From an uncultured archaeon (GTDB lineage Archaea > Asgardarchaeota > Jordiarchaeia > Jordiarchaeales > Jordiarchaeaceae): DNA of 32,000 nt. The position numbers and the translations under genes are program-made. Positions 7,463 to 24,376 of the stretch are shown here, piece by piece. The stretch's first letter is position 1, and each line of letters opens with the position of its first letter. Below the pieces are notes generated by a model. That model did not search any database, had not been told where the DNA came from, and saw only the letters and a program-made list of their open reading frames with translations. The DNA lies in the NCBI GenBank assembly GCA_964510585.1, contig CAZECW010000146.1:1-32000 (forward strand). Reading direction: 5' to 3'.

Positions 7463-8839
7463 TTAGCCCTTCTTCCCTACTTTTTGTATTATCCTGATGG
7501 CCTTTTCCACTGCTTCCTTTGCTGTTGGAGCCAATATTCTGACCATGGCTTCCTTGCCGATTCCACCGCGGTCAAATATAACATCGGGCACACGGCCTAT
7601 GGATGTAATTGCCCTGTTAACGCCCCACGGCAAACTTTTGCCTTCCTGCTCTTTAATCTCCGCTGGCTCTTCGTCTCTATTAAAAGTGGAAACTACCAGA
7701 TCCAGTTCTACGCAAGCATTGATTATTTCCTCAGAATACTTTATGTTAACCGCAGCTCTCATGGTTGGGTCGTGTTCCATCACTGCCAGGATGATTCTCG
7801 CTATGTGGCTGGAGGAGCCGAATTTGATGCATCCTAAGGGCTTCGCCCGTCCGTGATAATTCATTATTCTCCCATCCACCGCTGCTATGTCCCCTACGTC
7901 TTTAGCATTTGGTAAAGCCATACCCACGTTTGTCCTCACCTCTGGAATGAATTCTCCAAAATTGGGTGAGGATTCCATCATTGCTACTGCTGCGTCCAAA
8001 TCTTGGACAACCCTCCACTTCTCAGCATCTATTTCAAGCCAATAAGTAGGGTTAACTGGTTTTCTTCCTCCTCCCACCATTACTGGATGCCCAACCGCCT
8101 CATCAATAAATTTCTCCGCGTGGAACACTGCGTCTGCTGGCTCGCAGCCTTTAGCTATGTATGCTGCTATAGCTGCAGAAAAGCTGCAGCCGCTTCCGTG
8201 AGTTCCGGGTTCTTCGATTCTGGACTTCTCAAAAAGTTTTATCTTTCCTCCGCAAAACATTACGTCCACTACGGTTTTACCGGTGGCTTCCAAGTGTCCT
8301 CCCTTAATCACCACCACCTCTGGGCCGAGGGTTGAAATGACACGCGCCGCCTCCTCCATATCTTTAACCGAGTTAATCATAGTATCAGCTATTACCGAGG
8401 CTTCAGTAACATTTGGGGTAACCACTTGGGATAAGGGAATGAGATTTTTTACAATCATTTTTTCAGCAGCCGGAGTAACCAGCCTGTCGCCAGAGCCCGC
8501 CCAGATTACGGGGTCCACCACCAAGGGAAAGCCATGTTCATTTATTTCATTGCAGACCAGCTTTATTACTTCTGGTTCATAAAGCATCCCAGTCTTAGCT
8601 GCGTCCACTTCTATATCGTCGGCTACCACATCGATTTGAGCCATTACAATTTCTGGGGGAATGGGGTGGATGTCTCGCACAAATAAGGTATTCTGGGCGG
8701 TAATTGCTGTGATGGCGCAAGTTCCGTGAACACCTAGTGCCGCAAAAGTTTTTAGATCAGCCTGGATTCCTGCGCCTCCACCAGAATCTGAACCCGCAAT
8801 TGTTAGGGCTACGGGAAACTTCAAAGCCACAGCCTCCAA
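7463..8839 (-). CDS. thiD: Bifunctional HMP/HMP-P kinase - thiamine-phosphate synthase ThiDN
   Basis: [28 protein letters not shown] (ThiD). C-terminal [30 protein letters not shown] (archaeal ThiN). Confidence 0.95.
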
Positions 8840-9173: not shown

Positions 9174-9944
9174 TTGCTTATAATTTTCTGTGGTGTACCG
9201 AGCATCGGAAAAACTCTGATTGCAAGAAGGCTGGCAATTGAACTTGAGAAATGTGGCTATCCCACTGTTGTTGTGGGGTCAGACGACATTCGTCGACTTG
9301 TTCCCGCACATGTTGAGATGTTCAACCCACAGCGGGAAGAGTTCATAAGGGAAACAACACTACACATGATAGATTATTTTCTTAGTAAGGGAAAAACGGT
9401 AATCAGTGATGATACAAACTATTACAATGCAATGCGGCGAGACCTTATAAAAATCGCAGAGAAAAACAAAACGGATTATGCCATAGTCTACATATACGCC
9501 CCCCTGGAGCTTGCCCTAAAGTGGAATAGGGAACGGGGAGAGCCCATACCCTCCGAGGTGATAAATAGGATCCATGACAGATTCGATGTTCCCGGTAAAA
9601 AGTATAAGTGGGATCAGCCTATTGCCATTATTGACAGATCCAAGGAATCAGTGGAAGATTCTGTTAAAATAATTCTCCAGAAACTCAAAGAAGGGAAACC
9701 TCAAAAGAGCGGTAAGCCCCAAGTCTTGTATAAGGCGGGCAAATCTGAAGAAATCGACCAACTTACACGCAGAATCGCTGGAAAAATTTTGGAGGAAAAA
9801 GGCGACAAGATGCTGGCCCGGCGAATAAGCGCTTTGAGAAAGGGTTTTGTTAGGGAAGCGGTTGAGAAGAATTTAACTCTGGAACAGGCTGAGAAGGAGT
9901 TCGTCAAGAAGGTAAAGAGTGTGATCAATGGTGAAAATTTCTGA
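9174..9944 (+). CDS. pstK: O-phosphoseryl-tRNA(Sec) kinase
   Basis: P-loop [49 protein letters not shown] as in methanococcal PSTK. selB, SepSecS and tRNA-Sec are nearby. Confidence 0.88.
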
Positions 9945-10986
9945 ATGGGTACCTCGGGATGGCGACGCAATTTTTACTAAAGAGGGATTCATTTTTTACA
10001 CTATCGGATACGTTCATCCAGAGGATAGGGTAATCGCGTTTATCAAGTATATTCCCAAAGAACTTCAAAGCCATTTTAAAGTGCCTTGGCTACCCTATGA
10101 GTGGCAGCTGGGCAGCACTCCACTGGTAAGGCCAAAGAAGCTCTACTCACCCCAAATATACGCTTCCGTCATCTCCTCACTTAAGGAAATCATTCCAGAT
10201 ACCGTCTACTTTAACCCTTATGTGGGAAAGGAACTGGTTACGGTGCCCAAAAAGCACATTAAAGAGGTTTATGTTCCCAGCGAACGCTTGAAATACCTTT
10301 TGGAAAAGCAAGACCACGATGAGCTTGAGAGAAAAGCAGTAGAAGTCATAGGAATGCTTTCCAAAGAGTCTGGAGTGCCAGTAGAGGATTTTGGTATTCA
10401 CGGCTCCATTTCTCTCCAGATGCATAACCAACAAAGCGACATTGACATTTGTATTTATGGAGCTGAGAACTTCAGAAAGGTTAAGAACGCATTCCACAAC
10501 CTGTGCACCAAGGGTGTAGTATCAATTCTCCAAGTGGACGAGTTTGACCCCATTAGGCGGAACAGGGGCCTGTATCAGAACACAAGGTTTGTAATTAATG
10601 CCACCCGAAGAATTGAGGAAATGAAGGAGAAATTTGGACAATACAAGTATGAGGCCATAATGCCAGTTGAAGCCATATGTCGAGTAACAAATAATGATGA
10701 ATCCATGTTTCGCCCCTCAATCTATGAGGTGGACGAATGCCAGTTAAAACAAAAAGGTAGGGTGGAAAAGCCTAGCAAAGTTGTGAGCATGATTGGGCAA
10801 TTCAGAGATTTCGCAAGTGTAGGCGAGAGGATAAAAGTTAGAGGTATGCTCGAAAAGGTGGAGAACCTAAAAACAGGTGAAACCAGTTACCGCATAGTTG
10901 TGGGATCCGGAGTAGGCGAAGAATACCTTTGGCCAATAAATAGTTTACCCAGTTCTCCACTCGAAAAGATTATCAAATCCGATTAA
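9928..10986 (+). CDS. Archaeal Pol-beta-superfamily nucleotidyltransferase (COG1665-like), paralog 1
   Basis: FGIHGS...SDIDICIYG (GS + DxD) signature and an OB-like C-terminus ([10 protein letters not shown]). Start overlaps the pstK end by 17 nt. Confidence 0.8.
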
Positions 10987-11035
10987 AAGGCTGAAAAAGG
11001 CGGGGCTTCAATTTTTTAAAGGGGATGGTAAAATA

Positions 11036-12109
11036 ATGGTGCTAAAAGTGAGGGACAAGGATGCTCCCGTTTCGCGGGAGGGTATCATATTCAGGGTTTA
11101 CGGGTATGATCATCCTCCCCACGCCTGTATATGTGATGTAGAGTACGCTCCAGAAACCATATATAGAGCAGTGGAGCCCAAAGCGGTGCGCACAGGTCTC
11201 CCCCTAAAGTATTATAAGTTCTATTCGGATGGAGGGCTTAGATTTGTTCAAGAAAAATATCCCCAATACCAGTTTTTCTATGAGCCACTCCAACGCCAGC
11301 TTGTAGGAATAAAAGAGGAACAAATAGTTGAGCTCCGTAAACCTGACCAGAAGCTTAAAGAAATTTTGGAGCTGGAGCCCAAGGACAATCTGATGAGGAC
11401 CCTTAGAAATGTTTTGGAATTGATTTTTAACCACTCAAAGCTTAAGCCTTCGGACTTCGGTGTTTTCGGCTCCCTCCTGCACGGCTTTTACAATTTGAAT
11501 TATAGTGACCTCGACTACGTTATCTACGGTAGCAGCAAGGTTGAAGAACTTGTAGACGTTTTAGACGACCTTTACAAAGATCGGGATGGGGTGCTAAAAA
11601 ACGAGTTTGATTTTTTTGATGAGAGGACAGAACAAAAAAATTGGCGGTTTGAGAACTATACCCTCAAGGAGTATGAATGGTACGAGAGGAGAAAGCGTAT
11701 CTACGCCCTTCACGATTCAAAGGAGCTGGGCAGGAGGGTTAAGGTTGAGTTTGAACCCGTTAGGGCCTGGAACGAAATAAGAAATGAATATCACCCAGAG
11801 ATGCGAATAACTAGAATAGGATGGATAAAGGCGAAGGCAATTATTCGAGATGACAAGGAGTCCTACTTTATGCCCGCCATTTACCCCATAGAAGTCCTAG
11901 AAATCATTGAAGGGAGGGAAGCAGACAACATTGAAAGGATAATCACTTACGTAGAAGAGTACAAAATGCAGGTTAAAAAAGATGAAAAGGTGCTGGTGGA
12001 GGGAACGCTGGAAAAAGTTGAAACACCCCAAAAAACATTCCACCAAATTACTCTAACCCACATTCCAGACAAAAGGTACTACAGGCAGGTGCTGAAAATC
12101 GCAAAATAA
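11036..12109 (+). CDS. Archaeal Pol-beta-superfamily nucleotidyltransferase (COG1665-like), paralog 2
   Basis: FGVFGSLLHG...SDLDYVIYG, C-terminal VLVEGTLEKV; same architecture as the upstream paralog. Confidence 0.8.
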   Translation: MVLKVRDKDAPVSREGIIFRVYGYDHPPHACICDVEYAPETIYRAVEPKAVRTGLPLKYYKFYSDGGLRFVQEKYPQYQFFYEPLQRQLVGIKEEQIVELRKPDQKLKEILELEPKDNLMRTLRNVLELIFNHSKLKPSDFGVFGSLLHGFYNLNYSDLDYVIYGSSKVEELVDVLDDLYKDRDGVLKNEFDFFDERTEQKNWRFENYTLKEYEWYERRKRIYALHDSKELGRRVKVEFEPVRAWNEIRNEYHPEMRITRIGWIKAKAIIRDDKESYFMPAIYPIEVLEIIEGREADNIERIITYVEEYKMQVKKDEKVLVEGTLEKVETPQKTFHQITLTHIPDKRYYRQVLKIAK

Positions 12110-12267
12110 ACAACCCTTTTTGGCAGAAAAATACAGGATGAATCACCTCTCATTTGCAGAGGGAGAATTATAATTGTTTACTTGCCCAAAATGCAGACAT
12201 ATTTTAGGATTTTTTATATATTCTAGAAGTACTTACTTGATTATGAGCTCGAAAATACCAAATTTTC

Positions 12268-13293
12268 GTGGTGGTGAAATTGGTGAAATTTTACTATGAC
12301 GAAGACGCGGATCTATCAGTATTGAAGGATAAGGTCATTGCAGTTATAGGATACGGTAATCAGGGCCGCGCTCAGGCGCTAAATATGAGAGACAACCATC
12401 TCGAGGTAATAATAGGGAACATTAAAGACTCCTATTGGGACCTGGCAAAGGCTGATGGCTTCAAAGTTTATCCCATAAGAGAAGCCGCCAGCAAAGCCGA
12501 TATAATATCTTTCCTTATTCCAGACGAGCTTATGCCCCAAGTTTACGAGAAGGAAATCCGAGGCGAATTATCCCAGGGAAAGGTTCTCAACTTTGCGTCG
12601 GGTTACAACATAGGTTTTGGCTTAATCAAACCCCCCAGTAACGTGGATGTGGTTATGCTTGCACCTAGAATGATTGGAAAATATGTGCGTGAACTATTCG
12701 TTAAGGGAGAGGGATTCCCCAGTTTTATAGCAGTGGAGAATGATGCCAGCGGGAGAGCCAAAGACATAGTTTTGGCTTTGGCAAAAGCTATAGGCTCCAC
12801 TAGGGCGGGCGTGCTTGAAGTTACTATGGCTCAGGAGGCCTACATGGACCTATTTACAGAGCAGGGCACGGGTCCAATCATCGGCAGAACTCTGATGGCT
12901 GCCTTTCAAATTCTGGTGGAAGCCGGCCTCCCTCCAGAAGCTGTACTAATAGAGTTGTACATGTCCGGTGAACTGGGACTTGTTTTCCAGACCTTTGCCG
13001 AAACGGGAATCGCGGGACAAATGGAGTTACATTCCCAAACCAGCCAGTATGGATCAATTAGTAGGAGCTTGACCCTCAAATTCGATCCCATTGTTGAACA
13101 TCTCAAGAAGGTGTTTGAAGAAATAAAAAGCGGGGCCTTCGCAGAAGAGTGGAAGAAGGAACAGGAGGCAGGATACCCCAAGTTTAAAGAGTTAAAAGAG
13201 TTATCCAAGCTTAATCCCCTAGCCCCCTACGAGAAAAAGGTTATTGAGGGATTAAGAAGGAAAAAACTGGGAAGCCCCCATAGTTCCCCCTAA
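12268..13293 (+). CDS. ilvC: Ketol-acid reductoisomerase
   Basis: IAVIGYGNQGRAQALNMRD, LIPDE, MLAPRMIG, DLFTEQ, ELHSQTSQYG. Confidence 0.92.
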   Translation: MVVKLVKFYYDEDADLSVLKDKVIAVIGYGNQGRAQALNMRDNHLEVIIGNIKDSYWDLAKADGFKVYPIREAASKADIISFLIPDELMPQVYEKEIRGELSQGKVLNFASGYNIGFGLIKPPSNVDVVMLAPRMIGKYVRELFVKGEGFPSFIAVENDASGRAKDIVLALAKAIGSTRAGVLEVTMAQEAYMDLFTEQGTGPIIGRTLMAAFQILVEAGLPPEAVLIELYMSGELGLVFQTFAETGIAGQMELHSQTSQYGSISRSLTLKFDPIVEHLKKVFEEIKSGAFAEEWKKEQEAGYPKFKELKELSKLNPLAPYEKKVIEGLRRKKLGSPHSSP

Positions 13294-13335
13294 AACCATG
13301 TAGTAGGAATTATACTTAGATGGGAGGATTGATGT

Positions 13336-14730
13336 GTGCCTGACACTATTCCAGTTCACATAGGGCTTCTGGGTCACATTGACCATGGAAAAACTCAGGT
13401 GGCAAGGGCCCTGAGTGAAGTGGTTTCTACCGCAGGACTGGACAAGCACCCCCAAGCGCAGGAGAGAGGAATCTCAATAGATTTAGGTTTCACATCCTTC
13501 CACCTAAACAGTTACTTGGTAACCCTGGTTGATGCTCCAGGTCACGCAGAACTAATAAGAAGCGTGGTGGCTGGAGCGAACATAATTGACGCTGCAATTC
13601 TTGTGGTGGCAGCTGATGAAGGCCCAAAAATACAAACCGGTGAGCACATAGTTATTCTTGAAAGTTTCGGGATCATTAGGGTGCTTGTAGCTTTAAGCAA
13701 AATGGATTTAGTTTCCCCTGAAAGACTAGAAACAGTAAAGAAACAGGTTAGAAGTATTCTTAAGGGAACCGCCTTAGAGGGGGCGCCCATAATTCCCATT
13801 TCTGCAATTACTGGCGCGGGATTGGAAGAACTCAAGAAAGCCCTTTTAAGTGTTTTATCGCCCCCAAAAAGGGAAAAGGAGGGCCCTTTTAAGATGCCCA
13901 TAGACCACGCTTTTCGCATCAAAGGCGCAGGAACAGTGATAACGGGAACCATTCACAGGGGCAAAGTTTCTACTGGTGACGAAATTGAGATTATGCCCCT
14001 TAAACAAAACGCAAAAGTAAAGTCCATTCAAATCTTCAGAGAGGAAGTAAATGAGGCCCAAGCTGGAGACCGGGTGGGCATCAACATCATAGCAGGACCT
14101 GAACCCGAAAAGATTTATCGAGGATGCTACGCTGGAATGCCGGGAACCCTAAAGGTAACCAACCAGCTGATTGGAAGAATAAAGATGAATAAATTGTTCA
14201 AATATCCTCTCCACCCAGGTGTACGGGTGCACCTCACCGTGGGAATGCCCACAGTCACCGCCACTATGATTCCCTTCAAAACACTTGATGGGAAAAAAAT
14301 CCTTATAGAAGAAGTGGGAAACGAAGATACTTACGACGCCTTTTTCAGACTCGGCGAAAGCGTGGTTGCAGAAGAGGGAACACCCCTACTTATTTCCCGC
14401 CTAGATCTGCCTCCAACAACCCTAAGAATTGCGGGCAGCGGAAAAGTGACCCATCCAACAATTGAACAAACAGAATTCTTTATTGAAAAAATAAAAACGG
14501 GCCGAGTAAAAATCCCTGTTCACTCGAAGGGTAGCGTGGTCGTGGGACTGGCAGAAACAAAGTATGGAGCTGAAAAACTGTTAGATGAAACTGCTACCAC
14601 GGAAAAAGGAAACCGGGGAAAAGTAGTGGACACATTTGGAGGTAAAGGCGCTGTTATAATCAAGTTTGAAAAACCAGTTTCGGAAAACGAAGAAGTTTAC
14701 ATAAGAAAGCTTAAGCCACGTAAACTATGA
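13336..14730 (+). CDS. selB: Selenocysteine-specific elongation factor (archaeal SelB)
   Basis: GHIDHGKT, DKHPQAQERGISIDLGF, DAPGHAELI, QTGEH, MPIDHAFRIKGAGTVITGT, AGDRVG, and a short archaeal-type domain IV. Confidence 0.95.
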   Translation: MPDTIPVHIGLLGHIDHGKTQVARALSEVVSTAGLDKHPQAQERGISIDLGFTSFHLNSYLVTLVDAPGHAELIRSVVAGANIIDAAILVVAADEGPKIQTGEHIVILESFGIIRVLVALSKMDLVSPERLETVKKQVRSILKGTALEGAPIIPISAITGAGLEELKKALLSVLSPPKREKEGPFKMPIDHAFRIKGAGTVITGTIHRGKVSTGDEIEIMPLKQNAKVKSIQIFREEVNEAQAGDRVGINIIAGPEPEKIYRGCYAGMPGTLKVTNQLIGRIKMNKLFKYPLHPGVRVHLTVGMPTVTATMIPFKTLDGKKILIEEVGNEDTYDAFFRLGESVVAEEGTPLLISRLDLPPTTLRIAGSGKVTHPTIEQTEFFIEKIKTGRVKIPVHSKGSVVVGLAETKYGAEKLLDETATTEKGNRGKVVDTFGGKGAVIIKFEKPVSENEEVYIRKLKPRKL

Positions 14731-14767
14731 GGGAGGCCTTAGTCTGAGGGAACTAATCGAAAAATAC

Positions 14768-16063
14768 ATGAAGGGACTTATCCCCAAAAACATGCTAGAT
14801 AGAGGCGCTATTGTTCTGGAATCCCAACTGGATTCCCTACGCATACTATTCGAACAGAGAAATATACCTGAAGAGGCGTGGAGTGACTCCCAAATAAGGC
14901 TCCTACTAACGATTCTATCCATGATGGATACAGACAAGGATCCCCAAGCAGCCAGGGTAGGGGAAAGAGAAGCTAGAGTAGCTTCGCCCCTTGTTTCCGA
15001 ACTAGCAGCTAATTTCTGCCACGGCATAGGACGCAGCGGCGAAATATACGCCCCTCAACCTAAAGCACCCGGAGCCTCAATAATGTATGCTCTAGCCAAC
15101 ATGCTGGCCTCTGATGCCATTCGAAGATTCGGAGCCCCAAACTTAAAATACGCCTTCCTGCTCCCCCTACCCACGGGAATGTCAATTGGACTCGCAATAT
15201 CCGCTATGAGACAAAAGAGGAAAGGAAAACATGTGATCCACCCCCGTGTTGATCACAGGTCGCCCCTGAAAGCCATAGAACTTATAGGGCTGGAAACTAA
15301 AATCATCGAGGGCGAGATTAAGGGCGATGCGGTAATCGTTCCCCCAGAGAGGGTGGATGAGGCGATAGACGAGGAGACGCTGGCAATTCTGTCCACAACC
15401 ACCTTTTTCCCACCCCGCGAACCCGACGATGTTAAGGAAATAGCTAAAATCGCAAAAGAACACAACATCCCCCACATAATTAATAATGCATATGGGGTTC
15501 AGAGCAGAGAAATAATGAAAAGAATAAGGTCAGCGGTAGACGCTGGAAGAGTAGACGCCGTTGTTCAGAGTACCGACAAAAACTTCCTTACACCAGTAGG
15601 TGGAGCAATAGTTGCTGCGCCTGAGAGAGAAACCATAGAACGAATCAATGAACAATATGCAGGTAGAGCCACTGCGGCACCAGTAGCACAGTTCCTAGCT
15701 GCGATACTAGCTTTGGGTATCAAAAAATACGAAAGCCTCAGAGACGAACAGGAAAAGAACAGAGAATATCTGGAGGAGAACCTCAAAAAAATCGCAGAAG
15801 AATACGGAGAGAGAGTTCTAAATGTATATAACCCCATAGCCTGCGCCATGTCACTCACTAATAGAGATCCCGCAAAAGTTGGAGGTGCACTGTATAACCT
15901 GAGAGTAACTGGACCCAGAGCATTAGGGCCCACAAGCTACGGGTCCTGCTGCAAAAAGTACCACACAGCCTACATCACAATGAATGCGGCAATTGGAACA
16001 AGAAAAGAGGACATAGAAAAAGCACTACAAAAACTGGAGGAAACCCTAAAACAAACCAGATAA
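14768..16063 (+). CDS. spcS: O-phosphoseryl-tRNA(Sec):selenocysteinyl-tRNA synthase (SepSecS)
   Basis: GLIPKNM, SMMDTDKDP, GEREAR, FCHGIGRSG, QPKAPGAS, NNAYGVQ, STDKNFLTPVGG (PLP lysine). Confidence 0.96.
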   Translation: MKGLIPKNMLDRGAIVLESQLDSLRILFEQRNIPEEAWSDSQIRLLLTILSMMDTDKDPQAARVGEREARVASPLVSELAANFCHGIGRSGEIYAPQPKAPGASIMYALANMLASDAIRRFGAPNLKYAFLLPLPTGMSIGLAISAMRQKRKGKHVIHPRVDHRSPLKAIELIGLETKIIEGEIKGDAVIVPPERVDEAIDEETLAILSTTTFFPPREPDDVKEIAKIAKEHNIPHIINNAYGVQSREIMKRIRSAVDAGRVDAVVQSTDKNFLTPVGGAIVAAPERETIERINEQYAGRATAAPVAQFLAAILALGIKKYESLRDEQEKNREYLEENLKKIAEEYGERVLNVYNPIACAMSLTNRDPAKVGGALYNLRVTGPRALGPTSYGSCCKKYHTAYITMNAAIGTRKEDIEKALQKLEETLKQTR

Positions 16064-16188
16064 TTTTCAAAATAAATAAGTATAGCTAAGAGAGATTCCT
16101 CCTCCCTCGTTTTTGCGAGTTATACTCTTCGAAAGAGTTAAATTTTTTGTTATTCATTATTATTTACTGTTTCGTGACGGGAAAGGCT

Positions 16189-16848
16189 ATGTTGTCAGCT
16201 GATGTTGACGAGTTGGTTAGGGGCTTAAGCGAAGCTTTGCGTATTGTTAAAGTGAAAGGTGAACATTTAGATCTTTTCAGGGTGGCTTATCATGCTGCTA
16301 CTTCTCTAAAATCTTACTGTGTGGATTTTTCTGATAAAAGTGGTGAGGCCCCTCATAGTTTTGAGGCGAGGCTTCTCTCCTTAGAGGATGGGGAGAAGGT
16401 GGTGAAGCGGATAAAAGTAGCAGGCGGCCTTGAAGGGATAGAGCTGAAGGTTTGGGGCTCCAACAAAGAAAAGGCAGAGAAGAAAGTAGGGGAATTGTCC
16501 CAAAGAGTTGAGGAAACTCTTTCCAGAATAGGAAAAATGTCTGGTGAAAATGTTCAAAGGTTTCATAGTGCAGTAACAATCGAAAGGAAGTTGGACATGT
16601 CGCTGAATCGTCTCTTAACGGGAGCAACCAGACAACAAGTCTACTTTGACCTGGCCGACGCCAGAGAAAGAATAATTCTGTTATTGGGACACTTTGACTC
16701 CAGCATTATCCAGATGGAAAAAATGTTGGAAGACCTCACAAAACTAGACAAAGACGCACCCATTAAAAAGGAAGTAGGCGAGAAAATGGCTTTAGAAATC
16801 CTTAAATGGAAAAGAAGAATCAGCGACTACATATCGCAACTAAAATAG
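16189..16848 (+). CDS. Hypothetical soluble protein
   Basis: Long open frame with protein-like composition and a helical C-terminal half. ATG at 16189 preferred; no recognisable motif. Confidence 0.7.
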   Translation: MLSADVDELVRGLSEALRIVKVKGEHLDLFRVAYHAATSLKSYCVDFSDKSGEAPHSFEARLLSLEDGEKVVKRIKVAGGLEGIELKVWGSNKEKAEKKVGELSQRVEETLSRIGKMSGENVQRFHSAVTIERKLDMSLNRLLTGATRQQVYFDLADARERIILLLGHFDSSIIQMEKMLEDLTKLDKDAPIKKEVGEKMALEILKWKRRISDYISQLK

Positions 16849-17120
16849 AAAAACAAAATTTCTGGACAAAATACTCTAAAGCCCCTCCCCATAGCATATC
16901 GCCTTAGTGATTTTCGCATCACTGCACTTCTGCGATAAACCCCCAGATGAAAGACATATACAGGGGAACCTCTTTCCCCAGGATGAAATCAGAAAACTAA
17001 GAAGTAACGAGTATATAAAGAAGTAGTAAACCAGCAGTGCTATCGAAAAATTGGCATTCATAAAAAGGAGTGATACTTAGATTCCCCATAGGAGAAATTT
17101 TTTGGCGGCGGACTGGGGGA

Positions 17121-17153
17121 TCTTCGCAAACATACCCTAATAAGAGTACGTGT
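17121..17153 (-). other. tRNA intron 2 (T-loop, 33 nt, strict hBHBh')
   Basis: GGGG/CCCC, TTCG/CGAA helix, ATA and GAT bulges, intron stem CGTACTCT/AGGGTATG. Splicing restores the T-loop TTCGATT. Confidence 0.92.
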
Positions 17154-17207
17154 ATCGAACCCCGAACCCTTGCCGGGTTCCACGGATTTGAAGTCCGGGG
17201 CAAGGGA

Positions 17208-17235
17208 TTGGGCGGAGCCCCTTAGATAGGCTCCT
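17208..17235 (-). other. tRNA intron 1 (D-loop, 28 nt, relaxed BHB)
   Basis: GGGT/GCCC helix flanked by GGA and AAT bulges, intron stem GGAGCC/GGCTCC. Cleavage after the 2nd bulge nt restores a UGGU D-loop. Confidence 0.85.
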
Positions 17236-17477
17236 CCACCCCTGCTTCAGTCCGCCAACAAGTTTTATTGTTAAATTACAGGTTGATTTGAGAGTTATAT
17301 TGTTTTTCACAGCATTTATTTTTGTTTCCAGCGCCCCTTTAATAGTTAAGGGAAGCAGGGCACCCATTTTTAATGTGTGTTATGTATATTTTGACCGACA
17401 TCTTATTATAGCTTGAGTTTTGGTTTTTTGGTGAGTGTTACTAAATTTTTGGAGTTAGTTTGCGGAGTGTGTATTTT

Positions 17478-18458
17478 TTGAGTCTCAGGAATTTGGCTGA
17501 GTCTATCAAAAGCTTTGAGGGTGTTACGAGGAAGAAGCCTATTATTGATGTTACCCGCCCTTTAAGTGAGACTCTTCGTTTTTCTAAAATTGGCGTGGTG
17601 AAGTCGTTTGGTGAGGACTCTGCGGTTCTGGATTTGGGTGGTGAAGATTATCTTTTAGCGGCTACTGATGGAATCTGGCATAAGCTTTTGATGGCTGCGC
17701 CAAAATTTGCTGGTTATTGTTCTGTTCTGGTTAATGTGAATGATGTGGTGGTTAAGGGTGGAGAGCCACTGGCACTATTGGATACTTTGAGCTATGAGGA
17801 TATGGATGTGGCTAAGGGCATAATGGAGGGCGTCCTGTTGGGCTGCGAGAAGTTCGGGGTTCCTGTGGTGGGTGGTCACCTTCACCCCTTCTCATCTACT
17901 TATTCGCTCTCCGTAACGGTTCTGGGACGAGTACCAAGGAATGAAGTTATTTACAGCGATACTGCAAGGCCAGGCGAGTTTATTCTAGCTGCGGTTGATC
18001 TTGAGGGTAAAGTGCATGAAAGTTTTGCTTATGCTTGGGATAGCACTTCTTGGAAGAATCCGGAGTATGTTGAAGAGAAGTTTAAGGCTATGAGGCAGAT
18101 TGCCAAGAGACACTTGGCCACCGCTGCGAAGGATATTAGTAATCCGGGATTGATAGGAACTTTGGGTATGCTTCTTGAGGCCAGTCAGGTGGGTGGGATA
18201 GTTGATGTTTCCGCCATACCTAAACCCAAGGATGTGAAGTTGGAGCAGTGGGTTAAAATGTATCCCGGATTTGGGGTTGTTATGACTTCTAAACCAGAGA
18301 GGGCTTCGGAGTGCCTCGAAATATTTCGGAGTGTAGGTGTTTCGGCGGAGATAATTGGCCGCGTTGACGCTTCGAAAAAGCTTTTAATAGCAGATGACAG
18401 TGAAGTTTGTGAAGTATTTAGTTTTGAGAGAGACCGACTGTCTGGAAAAATTTGGTAA
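17478..18458 (+). CDS. PurM/SelD/ThiL (AIR synthase-related) superfamily protein, resembling the methanogenesis-marker-2 type
   Basis: LAESIKSFEGVTRK, FGEDSAV, ATDGIW, AGYCSVLVNVND, VVGGH, AKDISNPG. TTG at 17478 (GGAG upstream) preferred over 17460. Confidence 0.8.
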   Translation: MSLRNLAESIKSFEGVTRKKPIIDVTRPLSETLRFSKIGVVKSFGEDSAVLDLGGEDYLLAATDGIWHKLLMAAPKFAGYCSVLVNVNDVVVKGGEPLALLDTLSYEDMDVAKGIMEGVLLGCEKFGVPVVGGHLHPFSSTYSLSVTVLGRVPRNEVIYSDTARPGEFILAAVDLEGKVHESFAYAWDSTSWKNPEYVEEKFKAMRQIAKRHLATAAKDISNPGLIGTLGMLLEASQVGGIVDVSAIPKPKDVKLEQWVKMYPGFGVVMTSKPERASECLEIFRSVGVSAEIIGRVDASKKLLIADDSEVCEVFSFERDRLSGKIW

Positions 18459-18756: not shown

Positions 18757-20367
18757 TCACTCCCACTCCACGGTTGAGGGCGGTTTGTTTGTTATATCGT
18801 AGACCACCCTATTTATTCCCCTAACCTCATTCACTATTCGGGAGGAAATTCTTTCCAACAGGTCCCAGTCAAGTTTCGCAAAGTTTGCGGTCATGGCATC
18901 CTCACTCTCCACAGCTCTCACCGCTATAACATTCTCGTAGGTTCTCGCATCTCCCATTACTCCCACAGTTTTTACGGGCAGAAGAACTGCAAAATATTGC
19001 CAGAGTCTACTTTTAAAAGGGGATTTCTGAATTTCCTCCTGTATGATGGCGTCGGCCTCACGAAGGATACCCAGTTTCTGTTCTGTAACCTCACCTACTA
19101 TTCTCACAGCTAAACTGGGTCCGGGGAAAGGCTGCCTCCAAATTACATCGTCCGCGAGTCCTAGAAGTTTGCCCACTTTTCTAACCTCATCCTTGTAAAG
19201 GTATGCTAGAGGTTCAACCAGTTTAAGAGTCATACCCTGAGGGAGAGTTACGTTGTGGTGAGACTTTATTTTTGAAGCCGATTTGCTGGTTGCCGCAGAC
19301 TCCACCCGGTCAGGATAAATTGTCCCCTGACCCAGAAATTCGAATTTTCCATAGGCTCCCTCAAGTTCTCTGGCTTTGGCCTCAAAAATTCTTATGAATT
19401 GGTCAGCAATTATTTTGCGTTTATCCTCGGGGTCAATCACTCCCTTTAGCCTCTCAAGAAATGTTTCTCCAGCGTCCACAAAATGAATGTGCTCAAAGTT
19501 CAATCTTTTAAATCCCTCAACGACTTCCTTAGCTTCATTTTTTCTAAGAAGTCCATTATTAACAAATACACAGTGCAGGTTTTCTCCCACCGCCTCATGT
19601 ATTAGAACCGCTGCAACTGTGGAATCAACTCCTCCACTTACCGCCATTATAACCCTAGCGTCCCCAATAGTTTTCCTAATGTTCTGTATTGTTTCCTTTA
19701 CCCAGTCATCCATTCTCCAAGTGGGCCTACTTCCACATATTCCCTCCACAAAGTTCCGCAGAATCCTGCTCCCCTTGGCTGTGTGGTGCACCTCTATGTG
19801 GAATTGAACACCAAAAATATTATCCTTGACGTTTCGATACGCCGCTATGGCACAGTTATCGGTGTGTCCAATTTTCTCAAATCCTGAAGGTAAGAGTGAT
19901 ACTTGGTCTTCATGGCTCATCCAGACCACTTCAGTATCTTCTAAACCTTGGAAAAGATCCTCCCTATTTTCAACGCGGAGAACCGATTTTCCATACTCCC
20001 CCACACTTCTATTCACTTTACCCCCCAAAATATGGACTATTAGTTGATGACCATAACATATTCCCAAAATTGGAATTCCCCTCCTCTTACACCAAGCAAA
20101 GAATTCTCTACCAATAAGGGGACTACCCTCACTGTATACACTGCTTGGACCACCAGAAAAAATAACTCCTTTAAGCTTGGGAATTTTTTCCAACTCATCT
20201 ATGGATACATCATAGGGGTAAATCTCTGAATATACTCCTAGTTCACGAATTCTTCTGGAAATGAGATGAGTGTACTGGCCACCGAAATCTAATACTATTA
20301 TGGTGTCCCGCTCCAATGTAAAGCCACACTTCCATAAATTAGACATATATTTTGAGTTGAGTATCAC
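18757..20367 (-). CDS. guaA: GMP synthase (glutamine-hydrolysing), fused GATase + synthetase
   Basis: VLDFGGQY, ILGICYGHQ, VQFHIEV, AVSGGVDS, QGTIYPD, IKSHHNV, PFPGPSLAVR, ITNKPPSTVEWE. True start may be the TTG at 20316. Confidence 0.97.
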   Translation of the reverse strand: MILNSKYMSNLWKCGFTLERDTIIVLDFGGQYTHLISRRIRELGVYSEIYPYDVSIDELEKIPKLKGVIFSGGPSSVYSEGSPLIGREFFAWCKRRGIPILGICYGHQLIVHILGGKVNRSVGEYGKSVLRVENREDLFQGLEDTEVVWMSHEDQVSLLPSGFEKIGHTDNCAIAAYRNVKDNIFGVQFHIEVHHTAKGSRILRNFVEGICGSRPTWRMDDWVKETIQNIRKTIGDARVIMAVSGGVDSTVAAVLIHEAVGENLHCVFVNNGLLRKNEAKEVVEGFKRLNFEHIHFVDAGETFLERLKGVIDPEDKRKIIADQFIRIFEAKARELEGAYGKFEFLGQGTIYPDRVESAATSKSASKIKSHHNVTLPQGMTLKLVEPLAYLYKDEVRKVGKLLGLADDVIWRQPFPGPSLAVRIVGEVTEQKLGILREADAIIQEEIQKSPFKSRLWQYFAVLLPVKTVGVMGDARTYENVIAVRAVESEDAMTANFAKLDWDLLERISSRIVNEVRGINRVVYDITNKPPSTVEWE

Positions 20368-21484: not shown

Positions 21485-22405
21485 TTAGGTCTCTTTGGGC
21501 ACCAATTTGGCAATTATGGGTTCCACTGGTATTCTGTGCATTTTGAAGCCTAGTTTTTTGGGCTCCGCTCCCATAAGTAGAGCCAACAGTTGGGATAGGT
21601 GTATTACGGGAATTGGGTTTTCCAGCATTTCAACATCTAGAAGGTTTCCCTGATACTTGTCCAAAACATTAAGACAGTAGGGGCATATGACCACTATAGC
21701 CTCCGCATAGGCGTCTGACAGGCTATCGAGCTTCTTCTGAGTAACAGCGTAGGAAATGGTTTTGTGTACTGTTTGCTGTATTCCTCCAAACCCACAGCAC
21801 AAAGTTTTTTCAGTGTACTCTACAGGGATTCCACCCAGTTTCCCAACCATTTCCTCTATGAATGAGGGATTTTCCACACTGTCTAATCCCTTTTTTCCAT
21901 TAACATGTGAATAGTGGCAACCGTAGTGTACCGCCATTCTTAGTTCTCCGAGGCTAAAAGTTATCTTTTGTAGTATTTCATTCATTTTCTTGTAAAAGAA
22001 GTCTGCTATGTGAATAACTTCCACTTTTTCAAATTTTTTCCCAATCTTCTTGAGAATCTTGTCCGTCTGGAATTTTATCTGAGGATCCTCCATTAAGGCC
22101 TCAGCCACATAGAAGGAGGAATAGCATCCATTACAATCCGTGATAACGTAAGGCGTTTTTTCAAATATAATGCTGGAGTTTCTTCCCACGAGACAAGTGA
22201 GCACAGTATCAGCATTTAAAGAGCTAAATTCAGGGGTTCCGCAGCAGGTCTGATCATCACTCACCGCATAGTTAACACCCAACTTTTCAAGCACAAATCT
22301 GGTGGCTGACTCAATCCCGGGATAAAAATTATTTATAAAACAACCCCTAAAATAGAAAAAGACACCATTACCAGGAATCCTTTCCAATCTTTGCACATTC
22401 ACCAA
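21485..22405 (-). CDS. hdrB: Heterodisulfide reductase subunit B
   Basis: Two CCG domains: GC...TCCG...CNGC and YGCH...CCG...CPYC; HLSQLLALLMG. Confidence 0.92.
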   Translation of the reverse strand: MVNVQRLERIPGNGVFFYFRGCFINNFYPGIESATRFVLEKLGVNYAVSDDQTCCGTPEFSSLNADTVLTCLVGRNSSIIFEKTPYVITDCNGCYSSFYVAEALMEDPQIKFQTDKILKKIGKKFEKVEVIHIADFFYKKMNEILQKITFSLGELRMAVHYGCHYSHVNGKKGLDSVENPSFIEEMVGKLGGIPVEYTEKTLCCGFGGIQQTVHKTISYAVTQKKLDSLSDAYAEAIVVICPYCLNVLDKYQGNLLDVEMLENPIPVIHLSQLLALLMGAEPKKLGFKMHRIPVEPIIAKLVPKET

Positions 22406-22418
22406 TCAACAATCCCCC

Positions 22419-23024
22419 TTAATAGTTTTCTGAACACTCCCTTGCTTGCTTCACACTCTCATTCAACTTCTCCAACCCCTCTCTAAACCCTGTCTCCTTC
22501 AAAATAACTTTTAACTCCTCCATAGCCCTACCTGAAACCTCATATTTCTCAGGCAGACCCATCTCCAGCCGCATCTCAGCCAACTCCCTCTCCGCCTTTT
22601 TAGGATCCAGCCTAGCATAATCCCGGGGACTAATCGACAACCCACTTTCCAATAGATTCCTACCCACACCACTCAAGATTTCCACCAAATCCCAACCATA
22701 GCCCCTCTCCAAAGCCATCCTCCTCAGCCGAGAAATAATGTAAGGTATCCCTATTCTCCAAGGACACTTATTCATACAGAAGAAGCATTGAAAACAGTAC
22801 CAAACCTCCTTGCTGCTTAGAACCTTCTCTTCCTCACCTAGCGCCACATCATAAATAATTTTTCTAAAATTAAAACTGGAATTCCTACTAGCTACACAAT
22901 CTCCAACACAGGCCCCGCAAGAGAAACAGCATTCTATTTTTTTGCTATCTAGCCCTGCTACTCTGTCGAAGAATTTCCAACTCCATTTTCCTGAGGATAA
23001 TGCCGTGTTTCCGTTTGTTGTCAC
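22419..23024 (-). CDS. hdrC: Heterodisulfide reductase subunit C
   Basis: CFSCGACVGDC and WYCFQCFFCMNKCP clusters; LRRMALERG. Confidence 0.9.
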   Translation of the reverse strand: MTTNGNTALSSGKWSWKFFDRVAGLDSKKIECCFSCGACVGDCVASRNSSFNFRKIIYDVALGEEEKVLSSKEVWYCFQCFFCMNKCPWRIGIPYIISRLRRMALERGYGWDLVEILSGVGRNLLESGLSISPRDYARLDPKKAERELAEMRLEMGLPEKYEVSGRAMEELKVILKETGFREGLEKLNESVKQARECSENY

Positions 23025-24364
23025 TGAGCTACCTCCAGTTCCTTCTTCAAACGTTCTATGACCTTTTCTGTTTTGCCCTTCTCTGTGAGCATTCTTGTGC
23101 TCTTCTCCTTAAGGAAGTCTCTGGCCTTTTTTATACGCTGAGATAGTTTTTCCCTCATCTCCTCTGTCAGCTCTGGAACCTGCAGCTCGGGGATGGTGGG
23201 TTCTTCCTCCTCTATCTTTTCAATTTTCACTATGCGTATTTTGGGCATCTTTTCGGCTTTACCCACCAGTTTCAAGAATGTTTGTTCCCACATTCTGCTC
23301 CAAGGGGTTTCATTCGGCTTTGTGTATCGAACATCCTTTCTTATGACTTCTATTATTTTTTCTGGGCAGGCATTTTGACAGGCTCCACAGAAACCACAGA
23401 AATCTTGGTTGAAGGCTATCTTGTCAAATTTCTCCTTCTCTTCCATAGTTTCAGGGATAAACCACACCTTCGAGGGGCAAATGTTTAGACAGGCTTTACA
23501 GCCCACAGGGTCGCATTTCTCTGGGTGGTGTAGGCGAATTTCTCCCTCAAAGGCCTTTGTGACCCGTATCGCGTCTCTTGGACAAGCGGCTTTACACCAA
23601 CCACAGGTTAAACACTTCTCCCTATCTATTCTTATTTCCCCAGACCACTCTAAATCTTTTATTTCCCTATCAACCTCGGTTTTACAATTAACTTTGATTG
23701 CTTTGTCTGGACATATTTTTTCGCAGAGCCCACAGTAGTCGCACTCATCCTCCACCACTCTGATATCATATCCGGGAGCAGGATTATTTGGGGTTACATC
23801 TCTCCAGCTAATCTCTATAGCTTTGCAAAGCCTTTCACAGAGTCCACAGTAGGTACATTTTTCTTTGTCTATTGTAATCTCTCCCTCTATTTTACCCGGC
23901 TCCTTCCCGTAGATAACCAAGTCCTCCTTTTTGGGAACCTTAAGATCAGCAGTAATAGACTTATTGGGGCAAGCATGTTCACACAAAACGCAAGGAATAC
24001 ACTTCTCCTTGTCTATTTCAATGTCCTTTAGAAACTGGGGATAGTCAGGATTTTCTTGAATGTACTGGTCATCCATTTTAAGCTTCATAGCCTTTGTTAG
24101 GCAAACCGCAGAGCACAAACCGCAGTAGGAGCACTTGTTCTGATCAACCATCACTTTGGGAGCATCTATCTCCCCCATTGCAATCTCAGGTATTGGCCCC
24201 AGCTCTATGGCATCACAGGGGCAGACCAATTTGCACAAGCCGCAACCCGAACATCTTGAAGCGTCATAGTCCAGTGTTTTCTTCAGCTTCTCAGTATTCC
24301 ATTTAAAAATTAGTCTGTCGTCCTGCACATCCATTGTAATTTCCAATTCTACACGATCACTCAA
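23021..24364 (-). CDS. fwdF: FwdF-like polyferredoxin (8 x [4Fe-4S])
   Basis: Eight CxxCxxCxxxC-type motifs. The GPIPEIAMGEIDAPK segment resembles FwdF. Its TGA overlaps the hdrC GTG (GTGA). Confidence 0.75.
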   Translation of the reverse strand: MSDRVELEITMDVQDDRLIFKWNTEKLKKTLDYDASRCSGCGLCKLVCPCDAIELGPIPEIAMGEIDAPKVMVDQNKCSYCGLCSAVCLTKAMKLKMDDQYIQENPDYPQFLKDIEIDKEKCIPCVLCEHACPNKSITADLKVPKKEDLVIYGKEPGKIEGEITIDKEKCTYCGLCERLCKAIEISWRDVTPNNPAPGYDIRVVEDECDYCGLCEKICPDKAIKVNCKTEVDREIKDLEWSGEIRIDREKCLTCGWCKAACPRDAIRVTKAFEGEIRLHHPEKCDPVGCKACLNICPSKVWFIPETMEEKEKFDKIAFNQDFCGFCGACQNACPEKIIEVIRKDVRYTKPNETPWSRMWEQTFLKLVGKAEKMPKIRIVKIEKIEEEEPTIPELQVPELTEEMREKLSQRIKKARDFLKEKSTRMLTEKGKTEKVIERLKKELEVAQ

Positions 24365-24376
24365 AATAAATCCTCC

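Follow-up and report, generated by a model that had tools for sequence, protein, structure and literature searches.

A compact selenocysteine-decoding cluster with a tRNA-Sec gene containing two predicted introns in an Asgard archaeon, and neighboring genes that are probably not dedicated selenocysteine factors

The 32,000-nucleotide stretch of DNA analyzed here (the window; positions 1 to 32,000 of contig CAZECW010000146.1, from an uncultured archaeon of the Asgard family Jordiarchaeaceae) contains, within about 8 kb, a set of genes for the synthesis and decoding of selenocysteine (Sec). Three of them, pstK (9174-9944), selB (encoding the Sec-specific elongation factor, also called aEFSec; 13336-14730) and the gene for SepSecS (spcS, O-phosphoseryl-tRNA(Sec) selenium transferase; 14768-16063), lie on the plus strand, followed on the same strand by an open reading frame (ORF) for an Asgard-only protein, Sel_Asgard (16189-16848), and on the minus strand by a gene for tRNA-Sec(UCA) with two predicted introns (17256-17103). 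Between pstK and selB are two genes for predicted nucleotidyltransferases (NTases), NT1 (9928-10986, plus strand) and NT2 (11036-12109, plus strand), and ilvC, encoding ketol-acid reductoisomerase (12268-13293, plus strand); a gene of the PurM/AIR-synthase superfamily (the PurM-like gene; 17460-18458, plus strand) lies beyond tRNA-Sec. All eight protein genes from pstK to the PurM-like gene are thus on the plus strand, and tRNA-Sec alone is on the minus strand. The end of pstK overlaps the start of NT1 by 17 nt, and a 611-nt gap separates the end of the Sel_Asgard ORF from the start of the PurM-like gene. An earlier note on this DNA, made from the letters alone, had described pstK, selB, SepSecS and tRNA-Sec as co-located within ~8 kb, with selB and SepSecS 37 nt apart, and both statements hold: all four lie at or very near the positions it gave them, and the spacer runs from 14731 to 14767. 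Each of the five Sec-set protein genes occurs once in the 3.78-Mb genome, so the meeting of four specific loci within 8 kb would be far beyond chance. Near-identical loci were found by a back-translated scan in records named Ca. Jordarchaeia, Ca. Freyarchaeota (including the complete chromosome CP147778) and Ca. Jordarchaeum madagascariense. From gene identities, tRNA structure, synteny and phyletic patterns, all computed here, we conclude that the cluster is an intact, ordinary Sec operon of an already described Asgard type, and that the stretch as a whole is very probably the chromosomal Sec operon of a Jordarchaeia/Freyarchaeia archaeon in which the neighboring genes are syntenic but Sec-independent, and not dedicated Sec factors.

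The kinase gene at the start of the cluster encodes, judged by its sequence, a true PSTK and not KTI12. The protein matches TIGR03574 with an E-value of 2.6e-61 (207 bits) in an alignment that spans 1-245 of the 249 model positions, and a phmmer search of the PDB gave a full-length match to Methanocaldococcus jannaschii PSTK (3A4L/3ADB; E 3e-44, residues 1-249 of 256). Its Walker A motif is GVPSIGKT, and it is the sole full-length KTI12/PSTK-family gene in the genome. Were it instead a KTI12-type Elongator cofactor, the cluster would have no true kinase, and two facts could be read that way: Pfam assigns the protein to PF08433, named 'KTI12', and its TIGR03574 score falls short of the curated NCBIfam equivalog cut-off of 290.5 bits. 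PF08433, however, spans both KTI12 and PSTK, and the scores of all 123 Asgard hits likewise lie under the cut-off, so the model appears to be tuned to methanogen sequences. A KTI12 structure exists in the PDB; apart from generic P-loop kinases, the only PDB entries matched at E<=1e-3 were those of M. jannaschii PSTK, with no KTI12 chain. The phyletic distribution bears on the same question. We sampled 251 Asgard genomes, grouped them by GTDB family (labeled f1, f2 and so on) and scored Sec status by the presence of SepSecS and PSTK. The two proteins occurred in the same eight families only (f1, f2, f7, f9, f13, f16, f23 and f28, the Sec-positive families), PSTK tracking SepSecS family by family, and there were no matches in Sec-less families (for both proteins, 0/19 in f12, 0/26 in f5, 0/4 in f15 and 0/3 in f20). 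Given the 3A4L/3ADB match, the lack of any KTI12 chain among the matches and this SepSecS-like distribution, we regard the KTI12 assignment, which the earlier note had listed as a refuting outcome, as extremely improbable.

The next two steps of the pathway are encoded by genes with full-length matches to structurally characterized methanogen proteins. SelB scores 305.6 bits with TIGR00475 (cut-off 242), matches Pfam PF21440 (aSelB_III) with an E-value of 9e-25 and aligns over residues 7-460 of 464 with Methanococcus maripaludis SelB (4AC9; E 7e-117). SepSecS scores 512 bits with TIGR03531 (cut-off 225), matches PF05889 and aligns over residues 2-427 with the M. maripaludis enzyme (2Z67; E 1e-116).

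Standard finders missed the tRNA-Sec gene because it carries two predicted introns of the bulge-helix-bulge (BHB) type. Neither ARAGORN nor Rfam at its gathering threshold found any tRNA in the raw window. At a relaxed threshold, Rfam placed the unspliced tRNA-Sec at 17245-17140 of the minus strand with 22.6 bits (gathering score 47) and a mis-paired acceptor stem. Folding of the minus strand from 17265 to 17095 gave a very stable structure (-83.4 kcal/mol, z = -6.55) with a 9-10-bp acceptor stem and extra hairpins within the D and T arms. These hairpins correspond to a 28-nt insert in the D loop (intron 1, 17235-17208) and a 33-nt insert in the T loop at position 59/60 (intron 2, 17153-17121), which separate exons at 17256-17236, 17207-17154 and 17120-17103, the last with an encoded CCA at 17105-17103. 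When both inserts were removed in silico, 93 nt remained, which ARAGORN reported end to end as tRNA-SeC(tca), and the minimum free energy fold of the spliced sequence was a 9/4 cloverleaf whose D stem has 7 bp and whose D loop has 4 nt (UGGU), with a long variable arm, G73 and the encoded CCA. All hallmarks of an archaeal tRNA-Sec, including the UCA anticodon, are therefore present once the inserts are removed in silico.

As the criterion for a BHB, we required a central helix of 4 bp with a 3-nt bulge at either end, one on each strand, such that cutting after the second bulge base restores a standard loop. Intron 2 has the canonical form: next to the T stem (GGGG/CCCC) is a central helix UUCG/CGAA with bulges AUA and GAU, and excision restores the T loop UUCGAUU, exactly as it occurs in the tRNA-Sec of f7, which has no intron. 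Intron 1 has a central helix GGGU/GCCC, bulges GGA and AAU and an inner hairpin GGAGCC/GGCUCC, and its excision restores the D loop UGGU; its outer helix is weak, making this a relaxed version of the motif. In two congeners the tRNA-Sec exons are identical or differ at 2 positions and both inserts are heavily changed, and in f13 the tRNA-Sec is interrupted at these two positions as well, by inserts unrelated in sequence. On the evidence of sequence and folding, then, the tRNA-Sec gene at 17256-17103 of the minus strand is real and has two predicted BHB introns.

This gene structure belongs to a wider pattern, as 92-95% of tRNA genes in Freyarchaeia/Jordarchaeia-type lineages are interrupted and introns in the D arm are often missed (PMC11291895; bioRxiv 10.64898/2026.10.13.758758). 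Like the multi-intron tRNAs described from Freyrarchaeaceae, Jordiarchaeaceae and Atabeyarchaeaceae in the same two sources, tRNA-Sec is interrupted by predicted BHB introns outside the canonical position, in the D loop and at T-loop position 59/60; unlike them, it is the Sec isoacceptor, and a keyword search of the main texts of both sources did not find the two-intron layout of tRNA-Sec spelled out. A T-loop intron is shared with the tRNA-Sec of Lokiarchaeum (Mariotti et al. 2016, PMC4989117), whereas the second intron, in the D loop, sets the gene apart from those of the Asgard Sec systems with which we compared it. Motif scans located tRNA-Sec beside the Sec genes in the scanned loci of f1, f7, f9 and f13; the UCA-loop motif was not found in the scanned loci of f2, f16, f23 and f28. 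The tRNA-Sec of the Loki-like family f9 (loci L018-L020) contains the published T-loop intron and, in addition, an apparent extra insert in the D arm, which fits the 'unusual insertions' mentioned in PMC9723677. The locus offers an example of how to recognize a tRNA-Sec that is hidden from standard finders by two introns.

The remaining gene of the pathway, selD, is located on another contig (C193; 228 bits with TIGR00476) and has an in-frame UGA in its YGUSCK loop. A SECIS-like (selenocysteine insertion sequence-like) hairpin, recognized by eye and by folding, lies 3' of the selD stop codon (L001:2545-2610) and consists of AUGA, a 9-bp helix (CCUGCAGAC/GUCUGCGGG), an apical loop that contains AAAA, and GA; Rfam gave no SECIS family match at the selD locus. 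Two FlpD/VhuD-type genes with two in-frame TGA codons each (C150:29261-29629 and C76:15382-15750) probably encode Sec-containing hydrogenase delta subunits. The earlier note had asked whether the genome encodes any selenoproteins, and the Sec-containing selD with its SECIS-like 3' untranslated region (3'UTR), together with the two VhuD-type genes, provides the answer. These findings stand beside published reports of Sec machinery, a Sec tRNA, eukaryote-like SECIS elements and the selenoproteins HdrA, Prx-like, SPS and VhuU in Jordarchaeia/Freyarchaeia (PMC11291895; PMC9723677), and of Sec machinery, a Sec tRNA and selenoproteins in Atabeyarchaeia (PMC11291895). Within the window, 5 kb from the Sec cluster, the minus strand at 21485-26743 contains an operon for an HdrA-MvhD fusion (788 aa), an 8-cluster polyferredoxin, an HdrC-like protein and an HdrB-like protein; the hdrA-mvhD fusion has no TGA codon and is therefore the Cys form.

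The selD gene also has an insert of its own. Between the codons for ...DVY and AIGG... lie 30 nt with an in-frame TAA (C193, L001:1759-1788) that fit a BHB: the central helix is GUGU/GCAU, the bulges are ACA and AAG, and the inner hairpin has 9 bp. Exact excision of the insert restores the conserved DVYAIGG. Across five species of the genus its stem is conserved and its loop varies, and the insert is absent from the selD of f13. These features make it a probable mRNA intron of the tRNA type.

The order of steps in the Sec pathway, from SerRS through PSTK, SepSecS and SelD to SelB, is well established. In the archaeon studied here, the protein genes of the cluster would be co-transcribed, and the minus-strand transcript of tRNA-Sec would be a 154-nt precursor from which a splicing endonuclease and a ligase would remove the two BHB introns. 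The mature tRNA-Sec would be serylated by SerRS and then phosphorylated by PSTK, after which SepSecS would generate Sec-tRNA(Sec) using selenophosphate supplied by SelD, itself a selenoprotein encoded on the other contig. SelB would then carry the Sec-tRNA(Sec) to UGA codons in messages whose 3'UTRs contain eukaryote-like SECIS elements.

Comparison with published systems indicates how much of this arrangement is shared. As in the Asgard Sec systems already described (for Lokiarchaeum, PMC4989117; across Asgard archaea, PMC11227280; for Jordarchaeia/Sifarchaeia, Sun et al. 2021, PMC9723677; for Freyarchaeia/Atabeyarchaeia, Valentin-Alvarado et al. 2024, PMC11291895), there are PSTK, SepSecS, aSelB/EFSec and tRNA-Sec, with a Sec-containing SPS/SelD encoded elsewhere in the genome, an Asgard-only hypothetical protein beside secS, eukaryote-like SECIS elements, and selenoproteins of the SPS and VhuD types. 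The present locus differs from those systems in that everything but selD is in one 8-kb co-oriented block and in that this block is interleaved with the NTase pair and ilvC. Here pstK is upstream and in line, but it is divergent in the Thor-like family f7 and on a separate contig in the original Lokiarchaeum assembly. With Methanococcales and Methanopyrus, the locus shares orthologous PSTK, SelB and SepSecS and a tRNA-Sec of the same 9/4 architecture, its D stem likewise 7 bp long, whereas the SECIS elements of those organisms are of the archaeal type and Sel_Asgard had 0 matches in the control genomes. The earlier note was also correct that the Sec genes are dispersed in Sec-using methanogens (PMC9723677); the contrast is not new, however, as Asgard Sec clustering has already been documented.

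Synteny, a check that the earlier note had proposed and for which the proteins of the window were compared with 20 SepSecS loci, extends this picture across Asgard families. The full gene order is retained in the same-genus relatives compared (L009-L011), and SelB and SepSecS are adjacent in f1, f2, f7, f13 and f28. In f13, represented by complete 2.8-Mb genomes and probably corresponding to Atabeyarchaeia, the order is NT2-SelB-SepSecS-SelAsg-tRNA-PurM-(3 kb)-PSTK-NT1, rearranged yet clustered. Among the loci compared, the one in the window is the most compact Asgard Sec arrangement, with all but selD in 8 kb.

The earlier note had gone further and proposed, by guilt by association, that the two NTases, the ORF at 16189 and the PurM-like gene are candidates for missing archaeal Sec factors. 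NT1 has a weak match to PF01909, and its confident AlphaFold model (predicted local distance difference test score, pLDDT, 91.6) comprises a small N-terminal domain, a Pol-beta NTase palm and a C-terminal oligonucleotide-binding (OB) fold. The model superposes over its full length on M. jannaschii MJ1086 (AFDB Q58486; TM 0.81, E 2e-34, 26% identity), a member of an uncharacterized archaeal family, from which the present arrangement differs in being a conserved tandem of two diverged paralogues. A PDB sequence search with NT1 returned nothing meaningful and Foldseek against the PDB gave no match at E<=1e-3; the weak PDB matches were to Pol-beta-type palms (TUT1, mtPAP, GLD-2, OAS1) and then to OB folds (SSB, RPA, LysRS). 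NT2 was identified as the paralogue by BLASTP against NT1 (23% identity, E 4e-19), and neither protein varies in the G-S and DxD motif columns. Our working guess, based on the model, is that NT1 may be an RNA-binding terminal nucleotidyltransferase. The family is multi-copy, with six NT1 matches in the genome, and a second full-length tandem pair of the MJ1086 family, with 30-36% identity to NT1, is present on contig C20 (32004-34041), such that the family recurs as pairs.

The distribution of the NTase pair does not follow that of the Sec genes. The NT1-NT2 tandem occurs in sampled loci of f1, f2, f8, f15, f16, f20 and f26. Full-length NT1 orthologues with 42-58% identity are present in f8, f15, f20 and f26, families without SepSecS or PSTK, and in the loci fetched from these four families the tandem is intact without PSTK, SepSecS or SelB. 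In the Sec-positive family f16 the pair is unlinked from the Sec genes, and f7 and f9, the largest Sec-positive families, have distant NT1 matches only (E 1e-8 to 1e-29, with 28-31% identity where listed).

The PurM-like gene is of the 'methanogenesis marker 2' type (TIGR03267, 379 bits, cut-off 365). In a protein atlas it falls with ThiL-like/marker-2 clusters, in the 'methanogenesis marker 2'/sll0787 branch of the AIR-synthase superfamily. It is present in the Sec-less families f12 (19/19), f15 (3/4), f8 and f18, and the family is common in methanogens generally. We considered and rejected the possibility that the gene is selD: it scores 45 bits with TIGR00476 (cut-off 125), has no N-terminal Cys/Sec-Lys loop, and the true selD is on C193. 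Paralogues of the PurM-like gene in f16 and in genome G034 were also considered as selenoprotein forms and rejected, as the TGA that appeared to be 'inside' each is a stop codon overrun by the alignment. The ilvC gene (KARI_N and KARI_C domains; TIGR00465, 273 bits, cut-off 226) is the only ketol-acid reductoisomerase gene of the genome, lies inside the cluster in loci of its own genus only and not in the other SepSecS loci examined, and is a housekeeping gene within the cluster.

Several observations weigh against reading the neighbors as Sec-independent or the cluster as a plain Sec operon, among them the PSTK score below the equivalog cut-off described above. PSTK and NT1 are adjacent in every f1, f2, f13 and f28 genome on record with both, and in f1, f7, f13 and f28 the PurM-like gene has stayed 0.1-5 kb from Sec genes through rearrangements. 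The family-level profiles are drawn from related genomes and are not independent samples. For the selD stretch of the genome itself no RNA holder was listed, and the single metatranscriptome contig found in a same-genus relative (X9) covers positions 2243-2421 of L064 only, which is the 3' part of selD and not the intron junction, and so speaks neither for nor against splicing or expression. The linkage that persists is the reason to keep a rival explanation in which NT1-NT2, the PurM-like protein, or both are lineage-specific Sec accessory factors, acting at the 3' end of tRNA-Sec, in its processing or in selenium activation, whose place beside pstK/selB would reflect work in the pathway and which would have a second, general function in Sec-less lineages. 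This explanation would account for the PSTK-NT1 adjacency, which in the window amounts to an overlap of the two genes, for the position of NT2 directly upstream of SelB in f13, and for the fact that the PurM-like gene adjoins Sec genes in four families in which orders and orientations differ; the NTase palm and OB fold of NT1 would also be plausible for an RNA-acting enzyme. It has to contend, however, with the intact tandems at 42-58% identity in four families without SepSecS and PSTK, with the unlinked pair in Sec-positive f16 and the distant matches in f7 and f9, and with a PurM-like family that is found in all 19 genomes of Sec-less f12, is common in methanogens and does not have the SelD-type Cys/Sec-Lys loop. 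Persistence of the NTase pair and the PurM-like gene where the Sec trait has been lost argues against a dedicated Sec role, and we consider a lineage-specific accessory role quite unlikely.

The Sel_Asgard ORF encodes 219-233 aa, depending on the start: the mechanical ORF begins at 16147, but the N-termini of homologues align at M15 of that ORF, and the likely start is the ATG at 16189, 125 nt past the SepSecS stop codon. The protein scores 173 bits with NF045535, 'putative selenocysteine system protein' (cut-off 132), and is the Asgard-only hypothetical protein that an Asgard-wide survey reported as often near secS, efSec and pstk (PMC11227280). The ORF that the earlier note had presented as an uncharacterized candidate was therefore already cataloged and flagged. 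Its structural model is confident (pLDDT 89.7) and shows a platform resembling the adaptin appendage and TBP (Z ~11.7) joined to a four-helix bundle. A PDB sequence search returned nothing meaningful, Foldseek against the PDB gave no match at E<=1e-3, a wide VIA-align search gave generic platform-domain and four-helix-bundle matches only, with no RNA-binding families, and a homologue search returned close relatives only.

One explanation for these properties is that Sel_Asgard is the missing Sec-dedicated Asgard factor, for example a SECIS-binding protein that replaces SBP2. Its position ~0.1-0.7 kb downstream of SepSecS in f1, f7, f9, f13 and f23, its restriction to Asgard archaea, its NCBIfam name and the possible Sec association flagged in PMC11227280 all favor such a role. 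The distribution, however, is not restricted to Sec-using genomes, as the NF045535 name would imply: Sel_Asgard is above the cut-off in families without SepSecS or PSTK (f12, 19/19; f3, 3/4; f20, 2/3) and was not found in the Sec-positive family f16 (0/5). The invariant residues F44, D150, Y166, R173 and E174 are retained in the Sec-less homologues, and neither an L7Ae-type kink-turn-binding domain nor an RNA-binding family is among the matches of the predicted fold (for the L7Ae family, Pfam, PDB sequence search, Foldseek and VIA-align gave no match, although a fold of this kind may be present even where no match is listed). A Sec-dedicated role for Sel_Asgard thus appears unlikely, and it is more probably an accessory or adaptor-like protein whose role would not be Sec-restricted. 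In the Sec-less genomes, the neighbors of Sel_Asgard (L044, L046) include no informative conserved partner, but rather a HerA-like ATPase, a CLC channel and a methyltransferase. At one such locus (L046, G001:C1, in Sec-less f3) a tRNA-splicing endonuclease gene (7656-8222) lies at a distance of 1.7 kb, a solitary instance that may be coincidental. An f2 genome (L012, G006:C1, 7171-7683) has a low Sel_Asgard match of 84.6 bits that spans an in-frame TGA and could represent either a gene in decay or an alignment that runs beyond a stop codon.

Of the interpretation offered in the earlier note, then, the co-location of the Sec genes, the true PSTK and the presence of selenoproteins stand, and the proposal that the neighbors are missing Sec factors does not: the phyletic profiles refute guilt by association for the NTases and the PurM-like gene and weaken it for Sel_Asgard. 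Because the NTase pair, the PurM-like gene and Sel_Asgard persist in families without SepSecS and PSTK, they should not be annotated as Sec-dedicated. More speculatively, and with still lower expectation than for the accessory roles weighed above, NT1/NT2 might modify RNA 3' ends or repair RNA, with tRNAs (tRNA-Sec among them) as substrates, in lineages whose tRNA genes are extremely fragmented; alternatively or additionally, Sel_Asgard might act as an adaptor linking SepSecS or SelB to a partner that Sec-less cells also possess. Either reading, if true, would assign a conserved archaeal family its first function and add a new accessory layer to archaeal Sec or tRNA maturation. As it stands, the locus has little significance beyond correct annotation, and the negative outcome for guilt by association is itself a useful result.

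The cluster is bounded on one side by thiD/thiN (7463-8839, minus strand) and on the other by guaA (18757-20367, minus strand), both assigned from the ORF listing and family scans. In a genome of the Sec-less family f20 (L035, G061:C1, 8536-12042), thiDN is followed by NT1-NT2 in the arrangement seen in the window minus pstK, which suggests that an older conserved block, composed of thiDN and the NTase pair, has either lost or gained pstK.

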